DNA of 64,000 nucleotides from Escherichia coli. GTDB taxonomy: Bacteria; Pseudomonadota; Gammaproteobacteria; Enterobacterales; Enterobacteriaceae. Below the pieces are notes generated by a model, which saw nothing but the letters and a program-made list of their open reading frames with translations, was not told the DNA's origin and did not search any database. Of the stretch, positions 991-31,523 are shown in pieces. Location of the stretch: assembly GCF_024223415.1 (NCBI RefSeq), contig NZ_CP100502.1; one strand, given 5' to 3'. Position numbers and translations under genes: made by a program. Position 1 is the first letter of the stretch. Each line of letters opens with the position of its first letter.

Positions 991-1635
991 ATGCCTGTTA
1001 TTGCTAATACGCATCCCAAAGGTGGTGTGGGTAAGACAACTTCATCCGTAAACATTGTTGGTGAAATGAAGTCTGATACAGTTGATCTGGATACTCATAC
1101 CGGGCTTTCTATCATTCTGGGGCTGAGACCTGAAGGAAAAGAAATTTCCGTGAAAGTACCCAAAACAGTGGATGAGTTAATCGAAATTATGACTCCCTAC
1201 AAGAACAGCGATAAGACGTTACTTATTGACTGTGGGGGATTTGACTCAGATCTTACCCGTACTGCGATTGCCTTTGCAGACTGCGTTATTGTTCCTTCAA
1301 AAGACTCCCTGACTGAACGTATTGGTTTGATGCATTTTGATGGAGTACTGGACGAAATCAGCTCTATCATGGGGACCGATATAACTGCTCACCTGTATCT
1401 CTGTAAAGTTAATCCTAACAAGAAGAAATTCCCTAAGCTTGATGCAATCCTGCCATCGTTCAAACATCTGAAGCTGATGAAGAGCCGCATTTCTGCTCGT
1501 GCAGAATTTGAGGATGTCATTGAGACTGGGATGGGAATCACTGAGTCTGTTCATGGGCGCTATTCGGCAGGAGGTAAGGAAGTTATTGCCCTGATCGAAG
1601 AAATCAATCATCTGATTGAAAATAACAAACAGTAA
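991..1635 (+). CDS. parA: ParA-family partition ATPase
   Basis: seq: deviant Walker A 'KGGVGKTT' right after the start 'MPVIANTHPKGGVGKTTSS'; GGAG RBS 9 nt upstream of ATG 991 (track ORF starts at 925). Confidence 0.8.
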   Translation: MPVIANTHPKGGVGKTTSSVNIVGEMKSDTVDLDTHTGLSIILGLRPEGKEISVKVPKTVDELIEIMTPYKNSDKTLLIDCGGFDSDLTRTAIAFADCVIVPSKDSLTERIGLMHFDGVLDEISSIMGTDITAHLYLCKVNPNKKKFPKLDAILPSFKHLKLMKSRISARAEFEDVIETGMGITESVHGRYSAGGKEVIALIEEINHLIENNKQ

Positions 1636-1721
1636 GGTGTGTCTATTGGGTATCCATATAGTATCCTTTGGGCTTTTAATGGATATCTTTTAAGTATCTA
1701 ACAAACATCCTGGGTTATCTC

Positions 1722-2030
1722 ATGAGCAAAGCGAAATTTAGTGCACAGGCTGAAAAACTGAAAAACCTGGTGGATTCTGCCAGATTACAAACTTCTTCTT
1801 CTGCCGTAACAGCAACAGCCCCGTCTCAGCCAAATGAAGGTGCAGAGGAAGTTTCAGGTCGTCCCGTGGCTGCCAGGACGAAGGCTAAGAATCTTAAGGC
1901 CATACCGCTGTCGTATTTTGAAGCTCATGCGGAACTTAAAGCGACCAGTAAAACATCTCTGGATTTTAGCTCATATATTATTGAGGCTATAAGAGAGAAG
2001 CTTGAACGTGATGGTGCAATAGGTCAATAA
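1722..2030 (+). CDS. Small partition/DNA-binding partner of ParA (ParB/ParG-like)
   Basis: seq: 102-aa ORF immediately downstream of parA, flanked by the GGATA-type repeats. infer: by position only. Confidence 0.4.
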   Translation: MSKAKFSAQAEKLKNLVDSARLQTSSSAVTATAPSQPNEGAEEVSGRPVAARTKAKNLKAIPLSYFEAHAELKATSKTSLDFSSYIIEAIREKLERDGAIGQ

Positions 2031-2443
2031 ACTATCGGATACCTTAAGGGTATCTGATGTGTGTCTTTTAAATGCGTTATGGGGATTCTTCACGTACCTA
2101 AAGAGTCCCCATTAGACATCTTTCTGTTTATGGTGACATGATTCGTCACCGCTTTCCTTTCCTCTCAGTTTCACCATTTCATTCCTTTTCCCTTAACCTG
2201 AACCATGATGTCCACGATGTTTTTATATTGCATTTATGTATCACATATAACCTTCATAATGTTTTTGTATCTATGATTTCCTCTGGTCTTAAAGTTGTGT
2301 GTACAATGTACATGCAATTTATCGTGTTTTTATGTTACATTTGTCCTTTCAAAAAGACCGTTTTTTCATTATAATTGAATATACATTGCATGTATGAAGC
2401 ATGTTTGTTTTTTCTATTTGTTTATGAGCAACGGAGACTGGTT

Positions 2444-3424
2444 ATGAAAATCTTTATTGATGATGGTTCTACCAACATTAAACTTGCCTGGTTGGAGGAT
2501 GGTGACGTGAAAACGTTAATCAGCCCTAACAGCTTTAAACCGGAATGGTCTTTTAGTTTACTGGATGATGCTGCTCCGGCTAATTACGAGATCGACGGCG
2601 AGAAGTTTTCATTTGATCCATTAAGTGCTGATGCTGTCGTAACGACTGAAACACGCTATCAGTACAGTGATGTGAATGTTGTGGCCATTCAGCATGCGCT
2701 ACAGCAGACCGGCCTGAAAGCGCAGCCTGTTGATGTCATCGTCACATTGCCGATCTCTGAATACCTTGACGCCAACAATCAGAAAAATAAGCAAAACATT
2801 GAAAGAAAGAAAAAAAATGTGATGCGTGAAGTACGGGTGCAGGGGAGTGATGCATTTGTTATTCGCAGTGTTTCCGTTCTTCCTGAAAGTATTCCCGCTG
2901 GTTTCAGTGTTCTTGCGGGGCTTGAGGATGATGAATCCCTTTTGATCGTAGATCTCGGTGGTACAACTCTTGATGTGTCGCATGTTCGTAGCAAAATGAC
3001 AGGGATTACAAAAACCTGGTGTGATCCGAATATCGGCGTGTCCCTGATTACATCCGGGGTTAAGGAACAGATGGCTGTACATGCTAATACAAGAGTGAGC
3101 TCATTCCAGGCTGACAATATCATTGTGCACCGTAATGAACCTGACTACCTTTCCCGTCGCATTTATAATGCTGAACAGCGTGAGTCTATCATTAATGTTA
3201 TCAATGAACGGCAGAAGTTGCTTATTAAACGAGTTAATGATGTCATCAGCCGTTTCACCGACTATACACATGTAATGTGTGTTGGTGGTGGGGCTGAAAT
3301 TGTGGCCGAGGCTGTGAAGAACCTGACTAAGGTTCCTGATGAGCGCTTTTATCTGAGCTCATCCCCGCAGTTTGATTTAGTCATGGGAATGATAAAAATG
3401 AAAGGTGGTGTGACTAATGAGTGA
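2444..3424 (+). CDS. parM: ParM/StbA actin-like partition ATPase
   Basis: seq: N-terminus 'MKIFIDDGSTNIKLAW' matches the ParM/StbA phosphate-1 motif; GGAG RBS before ATG 2444 (track ORF from 2375); AT-rich region 2140..2440 upstream. Confidence 0.8.
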   Translation: MKIFIDDGSTNIKLAWLEDGDVKTLISPNSFKPEWSFSLLDDAAPANYEIDGEKFSFDPLSADAVVTTETRYQYSDVNVVAIQHALQQTGLKAQPVDVIVTLPISEYLDANNQKNKQNIERKKKNVMREVRVQGSDAFVIRSVSVLPESIPAGFSVLAGLEDDESLLIVDLGGTTLDVSHVRSKMTGITKTWCDPNIGVSLITSGVKEQMAVHANTRVSSFQADNIIVHRNEPDYLSRRIYNAEQRESIINVINERQKLLIKRVNDVISRFTDYTHVMCVGGGAEIVAEAVKNLTKVPDERFYLSSSPQFDLVMGMIKMKGGVTNE

Positions 3425-3833
3425 TGAAAATAAATCCAGACGCTGCTCATTTGAACTTTTCCCGGATGAACGGACAGGAGATAAGATAGCAGATGAGCTC
3501 ATTGCAAATGAAAAACTGAAGGAGCGGGGACGTTTCATGCGCGCGATGTTAGTTACTGGTGCGGCGTTTGCAGCTATAGATAAACGTCTTCCTTTGCTGA
3601 TATCGGAGTTACTGACAGAAAATACGACTCTGGATGATATTAATAAGGTGATTTCCAGCGTAATACCAGGTGCTTTTTCGGTTGAAAAGAAATTGCTTGA
3701 ATTACTGGAAAAACAATCTGGTCTCCATACGTCTGTGGATTGCAGTACTCCTCTTACAGAGCAGAGTCTGTCGAGAAATGACGGTGAAGACCAGACCAGA
3801 AGAAACGCTGAAAATATGTTCGGAGATGACTGA
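3417..3833 (+). CDS. ParR/StbB-like centromere-binding adaptor
   Basis: seq: 138-aa ORF whose start overlaps the parM stop (translational coupling). infer: by position. Confidence 0.45.
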   Translation: MSDENKSRRCSFELFPDERTGDKIADELIANEKLKERGRFMRAMLVTGAAFAAIDKRLPLLISELLTENTTLDDINKVISSVIPGAFSVEKKLLELLEKQSGLHTSVDCSTPLTEQSLSRNDGEDQTRRNAENMFGDD

Positions 3834-3834
3834 A

Positions 3835-5109
3835 CTAACCCAGCCTGGCCAGGGGAATATCTCGCCATTTAGTTGTATAACACTGACTCAACATTTCCCG
3901 TTTCATTTGCCATTCAGGGGCGGTTCCTCGCCCCGCAAACCACACTTTCCCTTTTCCCGACTGGTTCAGTTCATCGAGTGTTTTCATTAACTTTTCACTG
4001 TTTTTACGGGGCTGGATTTCATCAAATAATCCCGGCTGCGCTATACCCGATGGTGTGAAATCAGCCAGCATGACACCTGCCTTCATATAGCGGTACCCTT
4101 CACGCCAGACATGGTTTAAGGCTCTGCATGCGGCGGCAATAATGTCCCGGCTGTCCTGTGTGGGCAATGGAAGCTTTTCCACAGCGGCATTGCTGTAACA
4201 GGGTTCTTTTACTGCAAAGGGTGATGTCCGTACAAATGTCGTCACCTGCCGGCAATACTGACGCTCCCCACGTAGTTTCTCTGCGGCCCGCTCTGCATAC
4301 TGAACAACAGCCTGGTGCATGGCATCTTTGTCTGTGATTCGTTCACCAAAACTGCGACTACAGACAATCTGCTGTTTTGCCGGTGGTGCTTCTTCCAGGG
4401 ATATGCAGGACTCGCCGTTGAGTTCGCGTACCGTACGCTCAAGAATGACGCTGAAGTTTTTCCGGATGAATGCCGTGTTAGCCTGCGCCAGCTGCAGTGC
4501 TGTGTTAATACCCAGCGCATTCAGCTTTTCCGTCAGTCTGTGTCCTACTCCCCAGACCTCACCAACTGGCTGCAGCCCCAGTAGCTTCAAGATCCGATTA
4601 CGGTTTTCTGCCGTCAGCGCGACCACTCCGGAAAACTGTGGCCATTGCTTTGTTGCCCACTGTGCACTTTTAGCCAGCGTTTTTGTAGGCGCAATGCCCA
4701 CCCCCATGGTGAGTCCTGTCCAGCTCTTTACCTGTTTCCTGAGCTGATGACCAAAAAACTCCGGAGAGATGCAATGATTTATCCCCCGCAAATCAATGAA
4801 CATTTCATCAATTGAGTAGGGCTCAACTGCGGGAGAAAGCGACTCCAGAACAGCCATAACCCGTTGGCTCATGCTGTGGTACAGCGCATAATTGCTGGAA
4901 AATACATGTATTTTCTTCTCCAGGCGCATTTGTCTCACCTGAAACCAGGGCTGCCCCATTCTGATGCCAAGGGCTTTTGCCTCCGGGCTGCGCGCGATCA
5001 CACAGCCATCGTTATTGCTGAGTACGATGACCGGTTCGTTGCGAAGGTCCGGGCGGAAAACTTTTTCACATGAGGCGTAGAAACTGTTGATATCAGCCAG
5101 TGCAAACAT
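3835..5109 (-). CDS. impB: Error-prone translesion polymerase subunit (UmuC family)
   Basis: seq: 424 aa, N-terminus 'MFALADINSFYASCEKVFRPDLRNEPVIVLSNNDGCVIARSPEAKALGI' is the Y-family polymerase signature. known: impCAB is typical of IncI1 plasmids. Confidence 0.9.
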   Translation of the reverse strand: MFALADINSFYASCEKVFRPDLRNEPVIVLSNNDGCVIARSPEAKALGIRMGQPWFQVRQMRLEKKIHVFSSNYALYHSMSQRVMAVLESLSPAVEPYSIDEMFIDLRGINHCISPEFFGHQLRKQVKSWTGLTMGVGIAPTKTLAKSAQWATKQWPQFSGVVALTAENRNRILKLLGLQPVGEVWGVGHRLTEKLNALGINTALQLAQANTAFIRKNFSVILERTVRELNGESCISLEEAPPAKQQIVCSRSFGERITDKDAMHQAVVQYAERAAEKLRGERQYCRQVTTFVRTSPFAVKEPCYSNAAVEKLPLPTQDSRDIIAAACRALNHVWREGYRYMKAGVMLADFTPSGIAQPGLFDEIQPRKNSEKLMKTLDELNQSGKGKVWFAGRGTAPEWQMKREMLSQCYTTKWRDIPLARLG

Positions 5110-5546
5110 CAGCGTAACTCCCGCGTCCTGTGTATCACGTGAGTGACAACACCAAAAATACAGATGTTTTCCGGATACAGTGTGCGGAACTCCGGGCTGT
5201 CTGAAACCGGCTCCAGTGCCGGGCGTGGGCGCAACAGCAGTCGTTTGACGGTGAACTCACCGTCGATCTCAGCGATAACGATGTCCCCGTGTTGTGGTTT
5301 TTCGGCCCTGTCCACTACCAGCAGATCACCATTCTGCACGCCAGCCTGGTTCATCGATTCACCGCTGGCGCGCAGAAAGAAGGTGGCTGCAGGTCTGCTG
5401 ATGCAATAGCTGTTCAGATCCAGTTCCTGCTCAGCATAATCAGTGGCAGGCGAAGGAAAACCGGCCTGGCAACGATCGGCAAACAACGGTCGCACGTAAC
5501 TGTCATCGCCTGAAGGGTCAGCCGGACGGTGATAAACGGTACTCAT
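5109..5546 (-). CDS. impA: UmuD-like LexA-family self-cleaving protein
   Basis: seq: 145 aa with S24-peptidase-like region 'ASGESMNQAGVQNGDLLVVDRAE'; start overlaps the impB region. Confidence 0.85.
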   Translation of the reverse strand: MSTVYHRPADPSGDDSYVRPLFADRCQAGFPSPATDYAEQELDLNSYCISRPAATFFLRASGESMNQAGVQNGDLLVVDRAEKPQHGDIVIAEIDGEFTVKRLLLRPRPALEPVSDSPEFRTLYPENICIFGVVTHVIHRTRELR

Positions 5547-5791
5547 GCTGCAGGCAGCCAGCTGTCGTCCTGCCAGATTTCTTCCAGCAGAGACAGGATA
5601 CGTTCTTTATCCTTGTCGTTGCGGGCTCCTGTGACAGATACAGACGGGGCGCTGCCCTGGTCTATACGCAGCCAGATTTCCGGGTAGTGTGGTTTCAGAC
5701 GTTGTTCGATTTCATTCTGTAGCGCCTGAAGTGTGCCTGATTTGAGGTTTTTTGTGCTCTGGCGGTCGAAAAGAATTTCAATGCGGATCAT
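5543..5791 (-). CDS. impC: ImpC, small first gene of the impCAB operon
   Basis: seq: 82-aa ORF overlapping the impA start. known: size and order match impCAB. Confidence 0.7.
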   Translation of the reverse strand: MIRIEILFDRQSTKNLKSGTLQALQNEIEQRLKPHYPEIWLRIDQGSAPSVSVTGARNDKDKERILSLLEEIWQDDSWLPAA

Positions 5792-5812
5792 GTTCTCATC
5801 TCCCTTTTCTTT

Positions 5813-5832
5813 TGCTGTATGTATATACAGTA
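5813..5832. promoter_or_regulatory. LexA (SOS) box upstream of impC
   Basis: seq: 'tgCTGTatgtatatACAGta' fits CTGT-N8-ACAG about 25 to 40 nt upstream of the impC start. Confidence 0.6.
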
Positions 5833-5959
5833 TTCTAATAACTGAATCCGCACACAGTCAAATGTCATTGTTGTGACTAAAAAACGCTCAATTCTCTGAG
5901 TGTGTGGCTGTATGCCTGCTGTGGGCTGCTGTGTCCAGCTTATCCACAGCATTTTGTGC

Positions 5960-6160
5960 ACGGTTCTGTGGACAAAATACCTGGTTACCCAGGCCGTGCC
6001 GGCACGTTAACCGGGCTGCATCCGATGCAAGTGTGTCGCTGTCGCCGGCCTCCTCACCCGGTCACGTTTCGTCGTTCCTCCTCCACGCGCTGCGGCTTCG
6101 GGGCCGCACCTGCATTCGTATGCGGTCGCCCGGTAACAGGTGCGGCACGGCCTGATGGAG
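5960..6160. repeat. GC-rich structured region with loose similarity to the family-A ssi-like repeat
   Basis: seq: 'gcatccgatgcaagtgtgtcgctgtcgccggcctcctcacccggtcac' resembles the family-A core 'gggatgcaagggtacgcttcgccgctgcggtcacccggtc'; lies directly upstream of the + strand ORF at 6185. Confidence 0.3.
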
Positions 6161-6184
6161 GCCGCATGTGAGAGGAGAATTCCC

Positions 6185-7111
6185 ATGCCAAACTGGTGCT
6201 CGAATCGTATGTATTTTTCTGGTGAACCGGCACAGATCGCTGAGATTAAACGACTGGCCAGCGGTGCAGTTACACCGCTTTATCGCCGCGCCACAAATGA
6301 AGGTATTCAGCTGTTTCTGGCCGGAAGTGCCGGACTTCTGCAGATCACTGAAAATATCCGCTCTGAACAGTGCCCCGGAGTGACGGCTGCCGGACGTGGT
6401 GCTGTATCGACGGAAAATATCGCGTTCACCCGCTGGCTGACACACCTGCAGAACGGTGTACTGCTGGATGAGCAAAACTGCCTGATGCTGCATGAACTCT
6501 GGCTGCAGAGCGGTACTGGACAGCGTCGCTGGGAAGGATTACCGGATGATGTCAGGGAAACCATCACTGTGCATTTCACCGCAAAAAGAGGTGACTGGTG
6601 TGACATCTGGGGTAGCGAGGATGTATCGGTGTGGTGGAACCGTCTGTGTGACAACGTAGTGCCGGAAAAAACCATGCCGTTTGACCTGCTGACGGTTCTG
6701 CCGACCCGCCTGGATGTTGAAGTGAATGGCTTTAATGGTGGTGTTCTGAACGGTGTTCCTTCTGCATATCACTGGTATACAGAACGGTATGGCGTGAAGT
6801 GGCCTTGTGGGTATGACCTGAATATCAGTAGTCAGGGAGACAACTGCATTCAGGTGGATTTCGACACGCCGTGGTGTCAGCCGGAAAGCGACGTTGTTGC
6901 AGCATTAAGCCGCCGTTTCGGCTGCACGCTGGAGCACTGGTACGCCGAACAGGGCTGCAATTTCTGTGGCTGGCAGTTGTATGAGCGCGGAGAGCTCGTT
7001 GATGTGCTCTGGGGGGAACTGGAATGGTCTTCCCCGACAGATGACGATGAGCTGCCGGAAGTCACCGGACCTGCGTGGATAGTCGACAAGGTGGCGCATT
7101 ACGGGGGATGA
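6185..7111 (+). CDS. Hypothetical Cys/Trp-rich protein
   Basis: seq: GAGAGGAG RBS before ATG 6185 (track ORF from 6140); many Cys and Trp ('NWCSNRMYF', 'FGCTLEHWYAEQGCNFCGWQ'); no motif I can name. Confidence 0.5.
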   Translation: MPNWCSNRMYFSGEPAQIAEIKRLASGAVTPLYRRATNEGIQLFLAGSAGLLQITENIRSEQCPGVTAAGRGAVSTENIAFTRWLTHLQNGVLLDEQNCLMLHELWLQSGTGQRRWEGLPDDVRETITVHFTAKRGDWCDIWGSEDVSVWWNRLCDNVVPEKTMPFDLLTVLPTRLDVEVNGFNGGVLNGVPSAYHWYTERYGVKWPCGYDLNISSQGDNCIQVDFDTPWCQPESDVVAALSRRFGCTLEHWYAEQGCNFCGWQLYERGELVDVLWGELEWSSPTDDDELPEVTGPAWIVDKVAHYGG

Positions 7112-9726: not shown

Positions 9727-10057
9727 GGAAGTCGCCGCCGGCTCCGCTTTACCCGGCCATGCGGGGCATGGCCTTGTGGGTTTTCAGTTATGTGGCCACC
9801 GTGTCGTGTGCGGGCTGTGCCGTGCCTCCATCTTAGCCGGGCTGGCAGGGATGCAAGGGTACGCTTCGCCGCTGCGGTCACCCGGTCCCTCCTTCCCGTC
9901 TGCCGTGATTTTCCGGTCGTTCACCCGCTCAGATTTCGCGGTCTCACCCTCCAACTCCCGCCAGCCGTGTGCGTCAGGCTGCGGCTTCCCTTGCGCCCTG
10001 TGCATCCCCGCCTTATCGCCCGGCTTTTATGGAGGCACGGCACCGCCCGGTGTCGCG
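9727..10057 (+). repeat. Family-A ssi/Frpo-like repeat, copy A1
   Basis: seq: about 330 nt nearly identical to 16711..17041, GC-rich and hairpin-rich, ending about 30 nt before a gene start. known: IncI1 and F leading regions carry ssi/Frpo single-strand promoters. Confidence 0.6.
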
Positions 10058-11199: not shown

Positions 11200-11905
11200 G
11201 CCCGCGCGAAAACCCCTGGCAGGCTGACGCCTGCCGGAAGGGAAGCGGGCCACGCTGGCGCGTCGCCCGTTACCCTTCCCGTCTGTGATGTGTCTGACTC
11301 AGGAGTGTTTCTTTCTTATGTTATGGAACTGTTCCTGATGTTGTTGTTCCTTTATCTGCTGCTCTGATTCTGACTACTGCAGTGTTGTTCTGTCTGCCGG
11401 GCGCACCTTCGGCTCCCGGCTGCCTGGCGGCATCCGGTCGTCAGGCCCGACTCCGACAGGCAGCTGCTGGCGCACCCGCCAGTCTCCGCCGAACCCGCTG
11501 GCGCGGTTTCGGGCTGTCGCTACGGTCCGATGCGTGAAAACCCGGGCTTGCAGCGACCGTTCCGGTCGCGCCGCCTCTGTCGCGCCGTGACCTGCGCTCC
11601 CTGCACACCTGACGGTGTGTGAGGAAACTGCGCCTGATGGCGCAGCAGTCCTCCCTCCTGCCGCCACCTCTGCGGCCTGTTTCCCGCTGTGGACTTTCCG
11701 GGGGGCAGACGTAACCCCCTCCCGTTCCATCTGTCCAGGGTGAGATGCACCGGCCACAAAATTTTTAGCCATGAACCCGGCAAAAAATTTTGCGTCCGCC
11801 CCCGGACAGCTGTCCCGTGAGGCGGTAAACGGGCCCCCATCGGAAAGGTCCACTGCGGGGAGAAACCCCTGTGAAGTGGACGGCAGGAGGAGCTTTCGCT
11901 CCTCT
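11200..11905 (+). repeat. Family-B ssi/Frpo-like repeat, copy B1
   Basis: seq: long GC-rich repeat shared with 17600..18250 and partly with 20815..21140 (e.g. 'caccttcggctcccggctgcctggcggcatccggtcgtcaggcccgactccgacaggcag'); ends about 70 nt before ssb. Confidence 0.55.
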
Positions 11906-14809: not shown

Positions 14810-14863
14810 TGAACAACCACACCGCCCCGCCGGAGACGGGGCGGCAGCAAGGGAGATACCGTG

Positions 14864-15298
14864 ATGAAAACTGAACTGACCCTGAATGCCCTGCAGTCCA
14901 TGAACGCACAGGAATATGAAGATATCCGTGCTGCGGGAAGCGATATGCGCCGTAATCTCACTCACGAGGTGATGCGTGAAGTGGACGCACCGGCTAACTG
15001 GATGATGAATGGCGAGTATGGCAGTGAGTTCGGGGGCTTTTTCCCCGTCCAGGTTCGTTTCACGCCAGCCCACGAACGTTTCCACCTGGCATTATGTTCG
15101 CCGGGAGACGTCTCTCAGCTCTGGATGCTGGTTCTGGTGAATTGTGGTGGACAGCCTTTCGCCGTCGTTCAGGTGCAACATATCTTCACGCCTGTCGCTA
15201 TCAGTCACACGCTGGCGCTTGCCGCGACACTTGATGCGCAGGGGTACAGTGTTAACGACATCATCCATATCCTGATGGCAGAAGGAGGTCAGGCATGA
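14864..15298 (+). CDS. psiB: Plasmid SOS-inhibition protein B
   Basis: seq: 144 aa '[32 protein letters not shown]...' recognised as PsiB; GGGAGA RBS; overlaps psiA by ATGA. Confidence 0.9.
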
Positions 15299-16014
15299 GC
15301 GCACGTTCACGGGCACTGATCCCCCTCAGCGCAGAGCAACAGGCCGCCATGCAGGCTGTGGCTGTCACCGAACAACGTCGTCGTCAGGGACGCACACTTT
15401 CAGCATGGCCTTATGCCAGCGCTTTCTTTCGCTGCCTGAATGGCAGTCGCCGGATTTCGCTGACCGATCTCCGCTTTTTTGCTCCTGCGCTGACGAAGGA
15501 GGAATTTCATGGCAACCGTCTCCTGTGGCTGGCTGCCGTGGATAAACTGATTGAAAGTTTTGGTGAAGTCTGTGTTCTTCCCCTGCCATCCGATGCGGGG
15601 CATCGTCTGTTCCCGTCCGTTCCTTTTCGTGAAGGTGAGCGGCGTCGTCAGAAAACCACGCTGACAGAGCAGAAATACAGCCGCCAGCGGGAACGTGAGG
15701 CAGAACGACGGGAACTGGAATACCAGACATGTTTTGCTCAGGCGCAGATTGACCTTGCGTTTCATACTCCCGCCACGGTCGGAAGCTGGTTGTCCCGCTG
15801 GTCTGGTGTTGTTGAGGAGCATGATCTGGAAACGATTTTCTGGGGGTGGTGCGGGCGTTTTCCATCACTGTCATCATTTGACCGGTTTTTCTGGCAGGAG
15901 GAACCACTCTGGCGGCTGATTTTTGAAGCCGGTGAGGCCGGTCGTGGTGCACCGGTACAGGTACGTGCACTTGAGCAGTGGATGATCCCGAACAAGCTGG
16001 AGAACGCAATATGA
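15295..16014 (+). CDS. psiA: Plasmid SOS-inhibition protein A
   Basis: seq: 239 aa directly coupled to psiB; size and position match PsiA. Confidence 0.85.
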
Positions 16015-16710: not shown

Positions 16711-17041
16711 GGAAGTCGCCGGCGGCTCCGCTTTTACCCGGCCATGCGGGGCATGGCCTTGTGGGTTTTCAGCTCTGTGGCCTCAGCGTCGTGTGCGGGC
16801 TGTGCCGTGCCTCCATCTTAGCCGGGCTGGCAGGGATGCAAGGGTACGCTTCGCCGCTGCGGTCACCCGGTCCCTCCTTCCCGTCTGCCGTGATTTTCCG
16901 GTCGTTCACCCGCTCAGATTTCGCGGTCTCACCCTCCAACTCCCGCCAGCCGTGTGCGTCAGGCTGCGGCTTCCCTTGCGCCCTGTGCATCCCCGCCTTA
17001 TCGCCCGGCTTTTATGGAGGCACGGCACCGCCCGGTGTCGC
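16711..17041 (+). repeat. Family-A ssi/Frpo-like repeat, copy A2
   Basis: seq: near-identical to 9727..10057; ends about 30 nt before ardA. Confidence 0.6.
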
Positions 17042-17599: not shown

Positions 17600-18250
17600 C
17601 CTGCCAGGCCGCCGGAAAACCCTGGCAGGCTTACGCCTGCCTGAAATGCAGGAGGGCCGCGCCTGCGGCGCTGCCCTTCCTGCCCGTCATGGTGTGAGGC
17701 ATTTTTCTGTTATGTCGTTTCTGTTGTTCTGATTTCCGGAGGCGGGGACACCTTCGGCTCCCGGCTGCCTGGCGGCATCCGGTCGTCAGGCCCGACTCCG
17801 ACAGGCAGCTGCTGGCGCACCCGCCAGTCTCCGCCGAACCCGCTGGCGCGGTTTCGGGCTGCCGCTACGGTCCGATGTCTGAAAAACCAGGCTTGCAGCG
17901 ACCGTTCCGGTCGCGCCGCCCCTGTCGCGCCGGAAACGGCGCTCCCTGCACACCTTACGGTGTGTAAGGCAACTGCGCCTGATGGCGCAGTCAACCCTTC
18001 CGCCGCCACCCCTGCGGCCTGTTTCCCGCTGTGGACTTTCCGGGGGCTGGAGTAACCACATCCCGTTTCAGCAGTCCAGGGGAAGATATACCGTCCACAA
18101 AATTTTTAGCCATAAACCCGGCAAAAAATTTTGCGTCCGCCCCCGGACAGCTGCCCCGTGACGTGGTGACGGACGCCCCATCGGAAAGGTCCACTGCGGG
18201 GAGAAACCCCGAAGAAGTGGACGGCAGAAGGGGCTTTCGCCCCTCCGGGG
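17600..18250 (+). repeat. Family-B ssi/Frpo-like repeat, copy B2
   Basis: seq: aligns along its length with 11200..11905; starts right after the ardA stop. Confidence 0.55.
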
Positions 18251-20712: not shown

Positions 20713-20814
20713 TTTTTGATTGTAGGTGTCGTGCTGTTTTCTCTGTTTTCACCTGTGCGGGAGTGGTGTGCCAGTGACCACCACATGCCATTGTTGCGCC
20801 GTCGTTTTTCTTCA

Positions 20815-21140
20815 GTCGCGCCGGATGCGGCGCTCCCTGCACACCTTACGGTGTGTAAGGCCACTGCGCCTGATGGCGCAGCTGTCTCTGCCTGTCTGCC
20901 GCCGCACTGCGGCCTGTTCTCCGCAGATGGACTTTCCGGGGGTACATACACGACCACATCCCGTTTCAGTCGTCCAGGGGAGAGATGTACCAGCCACAAA
21001 ACTTTTTGCCGCAGGCGTCAAAAACTTTTGCGTCTGCCCCCGGACAACTGCCCCGTGACGTGGTGAGCGTCCCCCGTCGGAAAGGTCCACTGCGGGGAAA
21101 TCCCCGAAGACCCGGACGGCAGAAGGAGCTTCGCTCCTCC
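20815..21140 (+). repeat. Family-B ssi/Frpo-like repeat, copy B3 (5'-truncated)
   Basis: seq: matches the 3' two-thirds of B1/B2 from 'ggcgctccctgcacaccttacggtgtgtaagg' onward. Confidence 0.5.
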
Positions 21141-21187
21141 GGGAAATGACCTGGCTGACCCGGCAGTCGTGACGATGAGGAGACAAT

Positions 21188-22039
21188 GTGATGAATCAGA
21201 CTTTACCCACTGCTGACCTGAATACTGCCGGCACGACAGATGTTATTCCGTCTGTGGCCATCGACCGCATCATCGCGCAGCGTAACGAAGGTATTGCACT
21301 GTTCATGCAGGCGATGGAATGCCTGGCGACAGCGCGCAGGATTCTGCTTGATGCGTCAGGTGATATTTTTCTTTACGGTTTTGAAGACTGCGTGACCGAC
21401 TCCGTTCGGTGCATGGATAAACCGGAAGAAGCGAAAAGGAATATCACCCGTCTTGCCGACCGGAAAATCTGGGACCGCCTGATGACGGATACGGGGATGT
21501 ACACCTTCATGAGTTCATGTCAGCGTGATGAGTGGAACAGCCAGCTGATGAGCGACACCTGTCCTGAAATCACCCTGGACAATGTACTGGCAACTTTTCG
21601 CCATCTGAATGCCAGTAAGATGCAGACATTTGAACAGGGACTGATTGATGTCTACCGGAAATTGTCATGGGATTACAGAACCAATAATCCCTGCCGTCTG
21701 GGCAAGAGAATCATTATTGAAAACCTGCTGTACCGCTGGAGTAACGGGCGTGTTACGCTGGACTGCAGCGGACGGGAGGCACTGGATGACCTGGTACGTC
21801 CGTTTTATCTGCTGGAGGGGCGCAACGTTCCTGACTTCCGGAGCAGCATCGGGGCGCAGTACGGTGAATTTATCGGGAACGGCGACAATGTCGGTAAGCT
21901 GTTAGAAGGGGAATATTTTACGGTGCGTGGCTACCAGAAAGGGACCGTACACATTGTCTTTAAGCGTCCTGACCTTGTTGAAAAACTGAATGATATTATT
22001 GCACGGCATTATCCTGGTTCATTGCCGCCACGAGTCTGA
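21188..22039 (+). CDS. Hypothetical protein, oriT-proximal leading-region gene
   Basis: seq: 283 aa with GAGGAG RBS, directly after copy B3. Confidence 0.5.
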   Translation: MMNQTLPTADLNTAGTTDVIPSVAIDRIIAQRNEGIALFMQAMECLATARRILLDASGDIFLYGFEDCVTDSVRCMDKPEEAKRNITRLADRKIWDRLMTDTGMYTFMSSCQRDEWNSQLMSDTCPEITLDNVLATFRHLNASKMQTFEQGLIDVYRKLSWDYRTNNPCRLGKRIIIENLLYRWSNGRVTLDCSGREALDDLVRPFYLLEGRNVPDFRSSIGAQYGEFIGNGDNVGKLLEGEYFTVRGYQKGTVHIVFKRPDLVEKLNDIIARHYPGSLPPRV

Positions 22040-22586: not shown

Positions 22587-22648
22587 CCTGAAAAACGGGA
22601 CAGGATGTGCAATTGTAATACCGTCACACGCGACGCTATTACAATTGC
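22587..22648 (-). other. oriT: Origin of transfer (oriT) core with 17-bp inverted repeat and nic region
   Basis: seq: minus-strand 'ggtattacaattgcacatcctgtcccgtttttcagg' with arms 22609..22625 and 22632..22648. known: from memory the R64 nic lies in 'CATCCTG|TCCCG'; position upstream of nikA fits. Confidence 0.6.
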
Positions 22649-30353: not shown

Positions 30354-30505
30354 GACAAAGTCTCCATTTCTGGAATTTAAATCAAACGGAAAGGTTAAAA
30401 ATTTATTTGCAGGCGATAAGAGCTAACCAGAGGAATTAGCCGTGCGATAAAAGGATTGTTGCAGATACGAAAGTCGTTAGAATAGCTGCGGGCGCTTGAG
30501 GCTGT

Positions 30506-30790
30506 ATGCCGAAAGCGTTTTGTGGACGGTATACAGCAGAAAGCCCCTGGAGATTTTTTTATCAATCAACCAAGGGCTCTACTGTAATGCCTAGACAACA
30601 TTATAGTAGCCCGATAACCGCCGTAAGGCAATGGAGGGGCTATGATGCCACAGCGAACGTTTTTAATGATGTTAATCGTCATCTGTGTGACGATTCTGTG
30701 TTTTGTCTGGATGGTGAGGGATTCGCTTTGCGGACTCCGGCTCCAGCAGGGAAACACAGTGCTTGTGGCAACGTTAGCCTACGAAGTTAA
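30506..30790 (+). CDS. pndC: pndC (mok-like) overlapping reading frame
   Basis: seq: ORF overlapping pndA in another frame and ending 7 nt before its stop, as in hok/mok loci. Confidence 0.45.
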   Translation: MPKAFCGRYTAESPWRFFYQSTKGSTVMPRQHYSSPITAVRQWRGYDATANVFNDVNRHLCDDSVFCLDGEGFALRTPAPAGKHSACGNVSLRS

Positions 30791-31263: not shown

Positions 31264-31294
31264 CAACAGATGTAAAAAAACCGACTGGTGAGGT
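31264..31294. terminator. Bidirectional Rho-independent terminator
   Basis: seq: 'aaaaaaaccgacTGGTGAGgtcggttttttt', 6-bp stem flanked by an A-run and a T-run. Confidence 0.6.
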
Positions 31295-31336
31295 CGGTTT
31301 TTTTACTGTTCCGTTACAGAGTGGGTGGCCCTGACC

Positions 31337-31360
31337 GGAGGAAATCTCTTTTCAACTAAC
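31337..31360 (+). repeat. 24-bp direct repeat copy 1 (ggaggaaatctcttttcaactaac)
   Basis: seq: repeated at 31524..31547 with one mismatch; followed by TATAAT-like hexamers at 31366 and 31403; its first 10 nt are the reverse complement of 31593..31602. Confidence 0.8.
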
Positions 31361-31523
31361 GTTCTTATAATAGCGAGCTGTTCATTTGATAGCAACCATC
31401 CTTATAATCCGCAGGTTAGCTCTGTCTGGCGACACTTCTGCCGTGATATCCATCGGGACTATGGATGCAAGATTTTAAGTCCTGGCTGAACAAACAGGTG
31501 GTGCTGTGTTCAGTGCTCTGGCA

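Follow-up and report, generated by a model that had tools for sequence, protein, structure and literature searches.

impCAB of an R64/ColIb-P9-type IncI1 plasmid, a umuDC-like polymerase operon downstream of a predicted LexA operator

The impCAB operon lies on the minus strand at positions 3835-5861 of the window, the 64,000-nt stretch of Escherichia coli DNA analysed here (RefSeq assembly GCF_024223415.1, contig NZ_CP100502.1). It consists of a sigma-70 promoter, a near-perfect LexA box, and three overlapping genes, with the three ORFs of the open reading frame listing occupying 3835-5791. In the direction of transcription, its elements are as follows.

5856-5861, minus strand: -35 hexamer TTGACT, from a consensus scan
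5840-5859, minus strand: weak second LexA-like site GACTGTGTGCGGATTCAGTT, matching at 12 of 20 positions and lying over the -35 hexamer and spacer
5832-5837, minus strand: -10 hexamer TAGAAT, separated from the -35 hexamer by an 18-nt spacer
5813-5832, minus strand: predicted primary LexA operator TACTGTATATACATACAGCA, matching the consensus TACTGTATATATATACAGTA at 18 of 20 positions, with the core CTGT-N8-ACAG at 5815-5830
5800-5804, minus strand: Shine-Dalgarno sequence GGGAG, 8 nt 5' of the impC ATG, by direct sequence reading
5543-5791, minus strand: impC, 82 aa, DinI-like (Pfam DinI, 65 bits)
5109-5546, minus strand: impA, 145 aa, by family a UmuD-like self-cleaving S24 peptidase (Pfam Peptidase_S24, 85 bits)
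3835-5109, minus strand: impB, 424 aa, UmuC-like Y-family DNA polymerase (Pfam IMS, IMS_C, and DUF4113)

The genes are tightly packed. The impA start overlaps the impC stop by 4 nt (ATGA), and the impA stop and the impB ATG have one base in common (TGATG). A consensus scan of the minus strand found no promoter-like site between the imp genes, no terminator-like site was found 3' of impB, and an Rfam scan of the whole window gave no match within the imp region. The original prediction had called this segment the impCAB translesion-synthesis operon; Pfam and NCBIfam assign the three proteins to the DinI-like, UmuD (S24), and UmuC families in agreement with that name, and the end coordinates it gave are exact in the open reading frame listing. 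The ImpC and ImpA sequences are letter-for-letter those of Swiss-Prot IMPC_ECOLX and IMPA_ECOLX, and the ImpB sequence carries the UniRef name Protein ImpB. At the DNA level, the imp region matches IncI1 plasmids, R64 and ColIb-P9 among them, with 100% identity across 2541 bp, and the window is collinear with R64 across 26 kb at 99.6% identity. The operon is flanked by stbAB on one side and a DUF1281/methylase block on the other.

ImpC aligns with the E. coli DinI structure 1GHH over residues 3-79 (E 7e-6, 29.5 bits). Its score against the NCBIfam DinI equivalog is 41 bits, under the cut-off of 111, so ImpC is a paralogue and not DinI itself. Both proteins belong to the DinI fold family and are LexA-controlled, whereas ImpC is a distant paralogue whose gene is co-transcribed with polymerase genes. 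This DinI-like first gene is what sets imp apart from umu and muc, and it is present here. ImpA exceeds the NCBIfam cut-off for the Pol V autoproteolytic subunit (143 bits against 110) and is 49% identical to K-12 UmuD. Its Ala28-Gly29 aligns with the UmuD cleavage site Cys24-Gly25, and its Ser64 and Lys101 align with UmuD Ser60 and Lys97. ImpB scores 793 bits against NCBIfam UmuC (cut-off 431), is 58% identical to K-12 UmuC over its full length, and retains the catalytic acidic residues Asp6 and Asp101-Glu102. A PDB sequence search with ImpB returned no UmuC structure and matched only DinB/Dpo4-type relatives.

The predicted impCAB promoter matches the consensus at 10 of 12 positions and is the best promoter-like site across 3300-6300 in the consensus scan. 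The LexA box ends 21 nt from the impC ATG. Its CTGT-N8-ACAG core was predicted at 5815-5830 and is found exactly there, the sole such site across the 64 kb. The accompanying claim that the box overlaps the impC promoter stands in part: the box has one base, the last, in common with the -10 hexamer and spans the expected start, but it does not lie over the hexamers. The first base of the box is the last T of the -10 hexamer (5832), and thus the box abuts the promoter. LexA occupancy on the window DNA and the transcription start site are, like ImpA cleavage, predicted from sequence.

The bare CTGT-N8-ACAG motif was rejected as sufficient evidence in itself because it is expected by chance: 0.77 copies are expected per window, and at least one occurs in 57 of 100 shuffles. 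The bare motif being weak, the 20-mer match and its position carry the weight. Sites with at most three mismatches to the 20-nt consensus appear in 0 of 100 shuffles. Among the other CTG-N10-CAG sites of the window, the best reaches 13/20. The palindrome could be read as a chance match or as serving a non-LexA role, for instance as an insertion target only. The chance expectation for the bare motif and the fact that ISL3 elements do target CTGT-N8-ACAG speak for this, yet it is scarcely credible for a box with 18 of 20 consensus positions that sits exactly at the -10/+1 region, recurs in equal layout in unrelated umuDC-like promoters, and precedes genes whose products are de-repressed when LexA is defective (PMC12211044).

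Matches to the impCAB promoter in plasmid and E. coli collections, searched for diverged copies, are almost all at least 95% identical. K-12 umuDC and phage umuDC-like operons were used in their place to gauge operator conservation. In K-12 umuDC and in each of four phage umuDC-like operons, a strong LexA box lies directly 5' of the umuD-like gene. The polymerases of these operons are just 56-60% identical and the DNA around the box is unrelated, with the box retained.

The closest relatives of the operon are the imp loci of the IncI1 plasmids TP110, R64, ColIb-P9, and pTF2 and of the Shigella virulence plasmid, which share its gene order, overlaps, and 20-nt operator at -21, and also its flanks, stbAB and the DUF1281/methylase block. 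The window copy shows no difference of substance from known IncI1 imp. K-12 umuDC shares the one-base gene overlap and a strong upstream LexA box (TACTGTATATAAAAACAGTA in K-12). It differs from imp, which has an extra DinI-like first gene, has Ala-Gly at the cleavage site where UmuD has Cys-Gly, and is carried by a plasmid, where it lies at the margin of the conjugative leading region. The mucAB (pKM101), samAB, and rumAB operons are mobile two-gene polymerase modules under LexA boxes. The phage umuDC-like operons, whose sequences were examined, are likewise mobile-element copies of the two-gene module under LexA boxes. All of these lack impC, and their sequences are ~40-60% identical to imp; the likeness to mucAB, samAB, and rumAB is drawn in part from PMC7092418.

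Regulation by LexA has been documented on IncI1 plasmid pTF2, which carries the identical 20-mer 21 nt 5' of impC with a heterology index of 1.60 (PMC12211044). In a LexA-defective host with pTF2, ImpC rises 21-fold, ImpA 9-fold, and ImpB 2-fold (PMC12211044). The original prediction was to fall if the operon escaped LexA control; this has in effect been tested on the sister plasmid, and de-repression was seen. The pTF2 counterpart of the weak second site differs from the window by one spacer base and has a heterology index of 13.49 (PMC12211044), and a function for the site at 5840-5859 is doubtful. No physical LexA-binding assay for the imp operator was found in the accessible literature. 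In the wild type with pTF2, half-MIC ciprofloxacin produced no significant rise in plasmid proteins (PMC12211044), so that literature also documents no case of imp being induced naturally by way of RecA in a cell with the plasmid. PMC12826799 makes no mention of umu or imp.

The feature is thus almost certainly the impCAB operon of an R64/ColIb-P9-type IncI1 plasmid, a umuDC-like polymerase V system under LexA control. It is an ordinary, long-described SOS mutagenesis operon that is already known. As cited in PMC12211044 and PMC10286972, imp of TP110 (Lodwick 1990) and of Shigella (Runyen-Janecky 1999) reportedly confers UV protection and induced mutagenesis.

The plasmid also carries genes that act on the SOS response during conjugation. 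Four features of the window bear on how these relate to impCAB.

14861-15298, plus strand: psiB, NCBIfam PsiB equivalog (267 bits, cut-off 100), collinear with R64 psiB
15295-16014, plus strand: psiA, NCBIfam match (376 bits, cut-off 243)
22600-22607, minus strand: oriT nick-region motif CATCCTG|T, directly 5' of nikA and followed by nikA/nikB, by sequence reading
11398-11904, 17743-18245, and 20812-21143: Frpo-like dispersed repeats, away from impC

The gene order ssb, parB-like, psiB, psiA is that of R64, and the equivalog match at 14861-15298 confirms the prediction that the plasmid carries psiB. The further suggestion of a regulatory tension between this SOS inhibitor and impCAB is sound as a description of the wiring, but it is neither a paradox nor new; strand and timing separate the two. 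The nick position inside the CATCCTG|T motif is taken from R64 and IncP-type oriT, and we presume it to apply here. The location of the motif on the minus strand identifies that strand as the one transferred, and the direction of transfer that follows fits the published order ardA, psiB, ssb. The genes ssb, psiB, psiA, and ardA are encoded by the plus strand, opposite to impCAB. The transferred strand can serve as template for psiB, ssb, and ardA but not for impCAB, whose sense strand is the transferred strand itself, so the operon has no template before complementary synthesis.

Its location nevertheless invites another view, in which impCAB is an early establishment function made from the incoming strand to complete or repair transferred DNA. 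On the leading side of oriT, the operon is ~17 kb away, adjoins the last block in common with the F leading region, and has been counted among leading-region genes (PMC10286972). Against this stand the lack of a template on the entering strand and the ordinary double-strand sigma-70 promoter and LexA operator at imp, where no Frpo/ssi-type hairpin promoter was found 5' of impC and the predicted promoter is a plain double-strand -35/-10. In the IncI1 plasmid pESBL, early induction is seen for six operons with single-strand promoters, and promoters of the conventional kind work only on double-stranded DNA; the early operons are named by ardA, klcA, M.EcoGIX, and ssi1-3 (PMC12672017). Their counterparts in the window lie on the strand opposite to impCAB. 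Among leading-region umu-like operons, 90.3% have an orientation unsuited to transcription from the T-strand, and such operons often mark an island boundary (PMC11541004). An early establishment role is consequently highly improbable. A hairpin at 5990-6154 folds better than shuffles (z -4.3) and faces opposite to imp, and it is no more than a candidate for the published 'class 3' single-strand promoter. The 77-nt gap 5' of the methylase gene shows no such advantage over shuffles in folding (z -1.5).

A separation of early from conventional genes of the kind seen between psiB and impCAB has been described previously (PMC12672017, PMC11541004), and the supposed psiB conflict is already explained through strand and timing. 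Entry of R64drd into E. coli does not induce SOS, and the target of PsiB is RecA (PMC2958807). The single-strand promoters of psiB work only until the complementary strand has been synthesised, and the induction declines within 30-60 min (PMC12672017, PMC2958807).

PsiB from a resident plasmid might still block RecA activation, in which case impCAB would rarely or never be induced and its LexA box would be largely idle. PsiB over-expression lowers mitomycin-induced SOS in E. coli from 11.6-fold to 6-fold (PMC2958807), and the absence of a detectable pTF2 protein rise at half-MIC ciprofloxacin (PMC12211044) points the same way. However, psiB expression is early and transient, the PsiB level in some psiB plasmids is too low to blunt SOS (PMC2958807), removal of LexA raises both the chromosomal SOS regulon and ImpCAB (PMC12211044), and the imp genes of I-complex plasmids are under purifying selection by dN/dS (PMC10286972). 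Taken together, an idle box is unlikely.

Under the preferred reading of a LexA-controlled polymerase V system, a LexA dimer on 5813-5832, directly after the -10 hexamer, would block transcription in an undamaged cell. DNA damage would generate RecA filaments, LexA self-cleavage, and a single imp transcript, from which the three genes would be translationally coupled through their 4-nt and 1-nt overlaps. On the RecA filament, ImpA would cut itself at Ala28-Gly29 by means of Ser64/Lys101, and the ImpA' dimer would join ImpB as an error-prone lesion-bypass polymerase. ImpC, being DinI-like, probably tunes the RecA filament and hence the timing of ImpA processing; this role is the weakest part of the scheme, as ImpC is distant from DinI. 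PsiB would not conflict with the imp circuit at steady state. It would be made briefly from the incoming single strand in a new recipient and would keep the entering DNA from triggering SOS. During entry impCAB is on the strand that cannot be transcribed, and conversion of the plasmid to double-stranded DNA would turn it into an ordinary operon under LexA repression.

By carrying impCAB, a very common resistance-plasmid family supplies its host with a second damage-inducible error-prone polymerase, and such a polymerase can increase mutation supply under DNA-damaging antibiotics. The window copy changes nothing in this familiar picture. The imp locus is present in 1592 of 5426 complete E. coli genomes (~29%) and is mostly intact.

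Insertion sequences are also found at the imp operator. The ISL3-family elements ISKox3 and ISEc53 are inserted exactly in the 8-bp spacer of the imp box in ~250 E. coli genomes, and junction counts at the box give 12 genomes for ISKox3 and 235 for ISEc53. A figure of ~15% of loci with ISKox3 at the box was dropped in view of the junctions, which give this element just those 12 genomes.

With such an insertion the operator is lost, and an SOS gene whose promoter lies 5' of the box would be cut off from that promoter. Losses of this kind raise the question of whether impCAB is a costly relic heading for loss, with no contribution to make in this plasmid. The operon is toxic when over-expressed (PMC10286972), the imp promoter is separated by an IS in ~15% of E. 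coli genomes with the locus, and in pAVS0068-A impB is additionally truncated by IS21. A relic is nonetheless very unlikely, since the three ORFs, catalytic residues, promoter, and operator are all intact in the window, the locus is widespread and mostly intact in complete E. coli genomes, dN/dS indicates purifying selection (PMC10286972), and Imp proteins have been detected (PMC12211044).

The target of ISKox3/ISEc53-type elements is CTGT-N8-ACAG at 39 distinct insertion sites in many species, and these sites are the LexA boxes of dinI, umuD, cho-like, tisB, and sbmC genes. An ISL3 subgroup comprising ISKox3, ISEc53, and their relatives probably targets LexA boxes specifically, cutting at both edges of the spacer and duplicating 8 bp. 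The palindrome may be recognised directly by the elements, or LexA bound to it may guide them. No description of LexA-box targeting by ISL3 elements was found in the searchable literature. As the box is intact in the window, this reading concerns the exposure of the box and not the content of the window. If it is true, IS homing to LexA boxes would constitute a natural rewiring or silencing of impCAB, umuDC, dinI, tisB, and sbmC. The ISL3 insertions are found in clinical E. coli lineages, where they could affect mutagenesis, persistence, and tolerance to quinolones.

impCAB is a minus-strand operon of the umuDC type, and the copy in the window is a textbook plasmid SOS-mutagenesis operon, intact, in its usual place, and with nothing new about it. 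Its components are as follows.

3835-5861, minus strand: impCAB unit, comprising a promoter-like site, palindrome, ribosome site, and three open reading frames
5861-5856, minus strand: promoter-like -35, TTGACT, with an 18-nt spacer to the -10
5837-5832, minus strand: promoter-like -10, TAGAAT
5832-5813, minus strand: 20-nt palindrome TACTGTATATACATACAGCA, directly after the -10
upstream of impC, minus strand: ribosome site GGGAG
5791-5543, minus strand: impC, 82 aa
5546-5109, minus strand: impA, 145 aa
5109-3835, minus strand: impB, 424 aa
5840-5859: second, poor LexA-like site over the -35 and spacer, 12/20 positions

Family matches, key residues, and exact database sequences for ImpC and ImpA (IMPC_ECOLX and IMPA_ECOLX) bear out the identification of these genes as impCAB in the original prediction; the database entry for ImpB also carries that name. 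impC matches the Pfam DinI-like family and can be aligned to the E. coli DinI structure, with a score under the NCBIfam cut-off for DinI proper; judged by these matches, ImpC is a DinI paralogue and not DinI itself. impA matches the Pfam S24 peptidase family and, above cut-off, the NCBIfam Pol V autoproteolytic subunit. ImpA is 49% identical to K-12 UmuD, aligns Ala28-Gly29 with the UmuD cleavage position, and contains Ser64 and Lys101. impB matches the Pfam Y-family polymerase and, above cut-off, NCBIfam UmuC; its product is 58% identical to K-12 UmuC along the whole length and contains Asp6 and Asp101-Glu102. impC and impA overlap via ATGA, and impA and impB have one common base (TGATG), as do K-12 umuD and umuC. 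Such overlaps are a classic sign of translational coupling.

The CTGT-N8-ACAG box placed at 5815-5830 by the original prediction is present and occurs once in the window, where 0.77 occurrences are expected by chance, so the motif alone proves nothing. The full 20-mer TACTGTATATACATACAGCA is more telling: it is identical to the LexA consensus at 18/20 positions, none of 100 shuffles came within three mismatches of that consensus, and the runner-up CTG-N10-CAG site in the 64 kb reaches 13/20. The TTGACT/TAGAAT pair is the top promoter match in the 3 kb scanned (10/12 positions). The LexA box and the predicted -10 hexamer share one base, the first of the box and the last of the hexamer, which would place the start site under a bound LexA dimer. 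The impC ATG lies 21 nt past the end of the 20-mer.

The box is a predicted operator, and its interpretation as the control site of a LexA-regulated operon is supported by work on related plasmids. A 2025 study covers most of the checks proposed with the original prediction, on the IncI1 plasmid pTF2 (PMC12211044). The same 20-mer is located at -21 of impC in pTF2 with a heterology index of 1.60, alongside the counterpart of the second, poor site at -48 with an index of 13.49, and proteomics in a LexA-defective host found ImpC, ImpA, and ImpB up 21-fold, 9-fold, and 2-fold (PMC12211044). Caution comes from the same study, in which half-MIC ciprofloxacin caused no measurable rise of pTF2 plasmid proteins (PMC12211044). 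Forced impCAB expression proved toxic in a transposon study of I-complex plasmids, which also found purifying selection on the genes (PMC10286972); this fits tight repression. Distant umuDC-like relatives serve as an independent check: in umuDC of K-12 and in each of four phage operons of the umuDC-like type, a strong LexA box immediately precedes the umuD-like gene, with polymerases only 56-60% identical to ImpB and unrelated DNA around the boxes.

The operon is common property of IncI1 plasmids. The 2541 bases around it are 100% identical to many of them, including R64 and ColIb-P9, and more than 5000 plasmid records match the region. Among 5426 complete E. coli genomes, 1592 contain the promoter and impC segment, nearly always on a plasmid. 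The window is collinear with R64 over its first 26 kb, at 99.6%, with the same gene order: parM/stbB, impBAC (reverse), DUF1281, methylase, klcA-like, ssb, parB-like, psiB, psiA, ardA, and oriT-nikAB. From 5900, some 40 bp past the imp -35, the window is homologous to the F plasmid leading region; the homology covers the DUF1281 and methylase genes, at 92%, and extends to at least 8998. Since F is without imp genes, the imp module spans about 3835-5899 and is an indel relative to F, with the partition genes on one side and the conserved leading block on the other. A single base separates the stop codon of impB (3835-3837, minus strand) from that of the convergent stbB (3831-3833, plus strand), and no terminator-like site was found on the impB strand between the end of the gene and 1500. 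Transcription of imp under SOS induction may therefore extend, antisense, into the partition genes stbAB, and that of stbAB may extend into impB.

The original prediction also saw a regulatory tension between impCAB and the SOS inhibitor psiB. The facts behind it are right, but the arrangement is a known one, resolved by strand and timing (PMC12672017, PMC11541004).

14861-15298, plus strand: psiB, with ssb before and psiA after
22607-22600, minus strand: nick-region motif CATCCTG|T of an R64-type oriT, just before nikA

The nick is presumably at the marked position inside the motif. Its location on the minus strand makes that the transferred strand, with entry in the order ardA, psiB, ssb and finally impC. 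ssb, psiB, and ardA have this strand as their template, as transcription from single-strand hairpin promoters requires. impCAB has its sense sequence on it and could thus be transcribed only after synthesis of the complement. Single-strand promoters drive six operons of IncI1 pESBL, whose induction reaches as much as 500-fold at 15 min and later fades; conventional promoters need double-stranded DNA (PMC12672017). Entry of R64drd into E. coli does not trigger SOS, and PsiB acts on RecA (PMC2958807). In a leading-region survey, umu-like operons frequently mark the far end of the anti-defence island, and 90.3% of them lack the orientation for T-strand transcription (PMC11541004). Strand orientation and early single-strand expression separate PsiB and impCAB: the entering strand would raise an alarm that PsiB silences, and impCAB would respond later, to real damage.

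Some E. coli matches to the imp promoter end abruptly within the LexA box, at ISL3-family insertions. All of these lie outside the window, whose own box is intact and without an insertion sequence.

p13KWH46-2 (locus L002), 2680-4010: ISKox3 insertion in the spacer of the impC LexA box
pAVS0068-A (locus L003), 1610-3510: ISEc53 insertion at the identical point, inverted relative to ISKox3

The insertion point is the counterpart of window 5819-5826, and both copies are flanked by duplicated ATATACAT, exactly the 8 bases between CTGT and ACAG. In both plasmids, the insertion splits the predicted LexA operator and separates the promoter from impCAB. The two transposases are 90% identical. Among 5426 complete E. 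coli genomes, 12 contain the junction with ISKox3 and 235 that with ISEc53. ISEc53 carries a ClbS/DfsB-like passenger gene (L003 2883-3401; Pfam DUF1706, 184 bits). Its family has been linked to protection against colibactin, a toxin that damages DNA, which makes the gene curious cargo for an insertion sequence found in an SOS operator.

The common IS end was scanned for in one genome per bacterial species and in sampled E. coli chromosomes, giving loci L010-L053 (32 from the one-genome-per-species contigs, 12 from E. coli) and 39 distinct insertion sites. ACAG stands at positions 9-12 past the IS end in 28/39 sites, against an expected 1 in 256, and CAG at positions 10-12 in 31/39. The 8-bp duplication is 86% A/T, and the target consensus is ATATATAT-ACAGTA. 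Five complete copies (L010, L029, L041, L002, and L003) have an exact 8-bp duplication with CTGT immediately on the other side, and a target of CTGT, 8-bp spacer, and ACAG is a LexA box. Genes adjoining insertions in Symbiopectobacterium, Yersinia, and Rahnella encode DinI, DinI-like, UmuD-like, and GIY-YIG (Cho-like) proteins. E. coli chromosome insertions adjoin tisB and sbmC, which are both LexA-regulated, and the sbmC box is hit in both orientations. A conserved LexA site is cited for tisB (PMC11264685).

Elements of the ISKox3/ISEc53 group therefore probably target LexA boxes in general, a lead that stands outside the verdict on impCAB. The transposase may read the palindrome itself, or bound LexA may act as the guide. 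No link of these elements to LexA boxes, tisB, or sbmC was found in the searchable literature. A scan of 5426 complete E. coli genomes found the ISKox3-type end in 1239, and ISKox3 occupies the tis/istR LexA box at 4 of the 12 sampled E. coli loci (L042, L045, L050, and L052). The annotated LexA site is kept in 94% of E. coli tis/istR loci, the fate of the rest being unstated (PMC11264685); ISKox3 insertion could account for part of the remainder.

Other features of the window touch on single-strand promoters and SOS regulation.

5990-6154, transferred (minus) strand: hairpin of about 165 nt, arms 5990-6016 and 6128-6154, z -4.3
9748-10047 and 16733-17032: pair of 300-nt direct repeats in the leading region, at 98% identity, preceding the klcA-like and ardA genes
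11398-11904, 17743-18245, and 20812-21143: three-copy direct repeat family in the leading region, in the gaps preceding ssb, following ardA, and preceding the 21188-22039 ORF
30490-30647, plus strand: sok antitoxin RNA (Rfam)
31272-31359, minus strand: AgrB antisense RNA, regulator of the DinQ toxin (Rfam)
31480-31499: LexA-like site ACCTGTTTGTTCAGCCAGGA, adjoining the AgrB RNA

The hairpin immediately precedes the DUF1281 gene, in a back-to-back arrangement with the imp promoter, and is conserved in F (92%). It is a candidate that may correspond to the "class 3" single-strand promoter of the M.EcoGIX operon of pESBL (PMC12672017). In position, the 300-nt pair corresponds to the class 2 and the three-copy family to the class 1 (Frpo/ssi) single-strand promoters of IncI1 plasmids (PMC12672017). 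ACCTGTTTGTTCAGCCAGGA has been assigned to dqlB with a heterology index of 11.64 (PMC12211044), and the AgrB/dqlB region is a possible second SOS-linked locus in the window.
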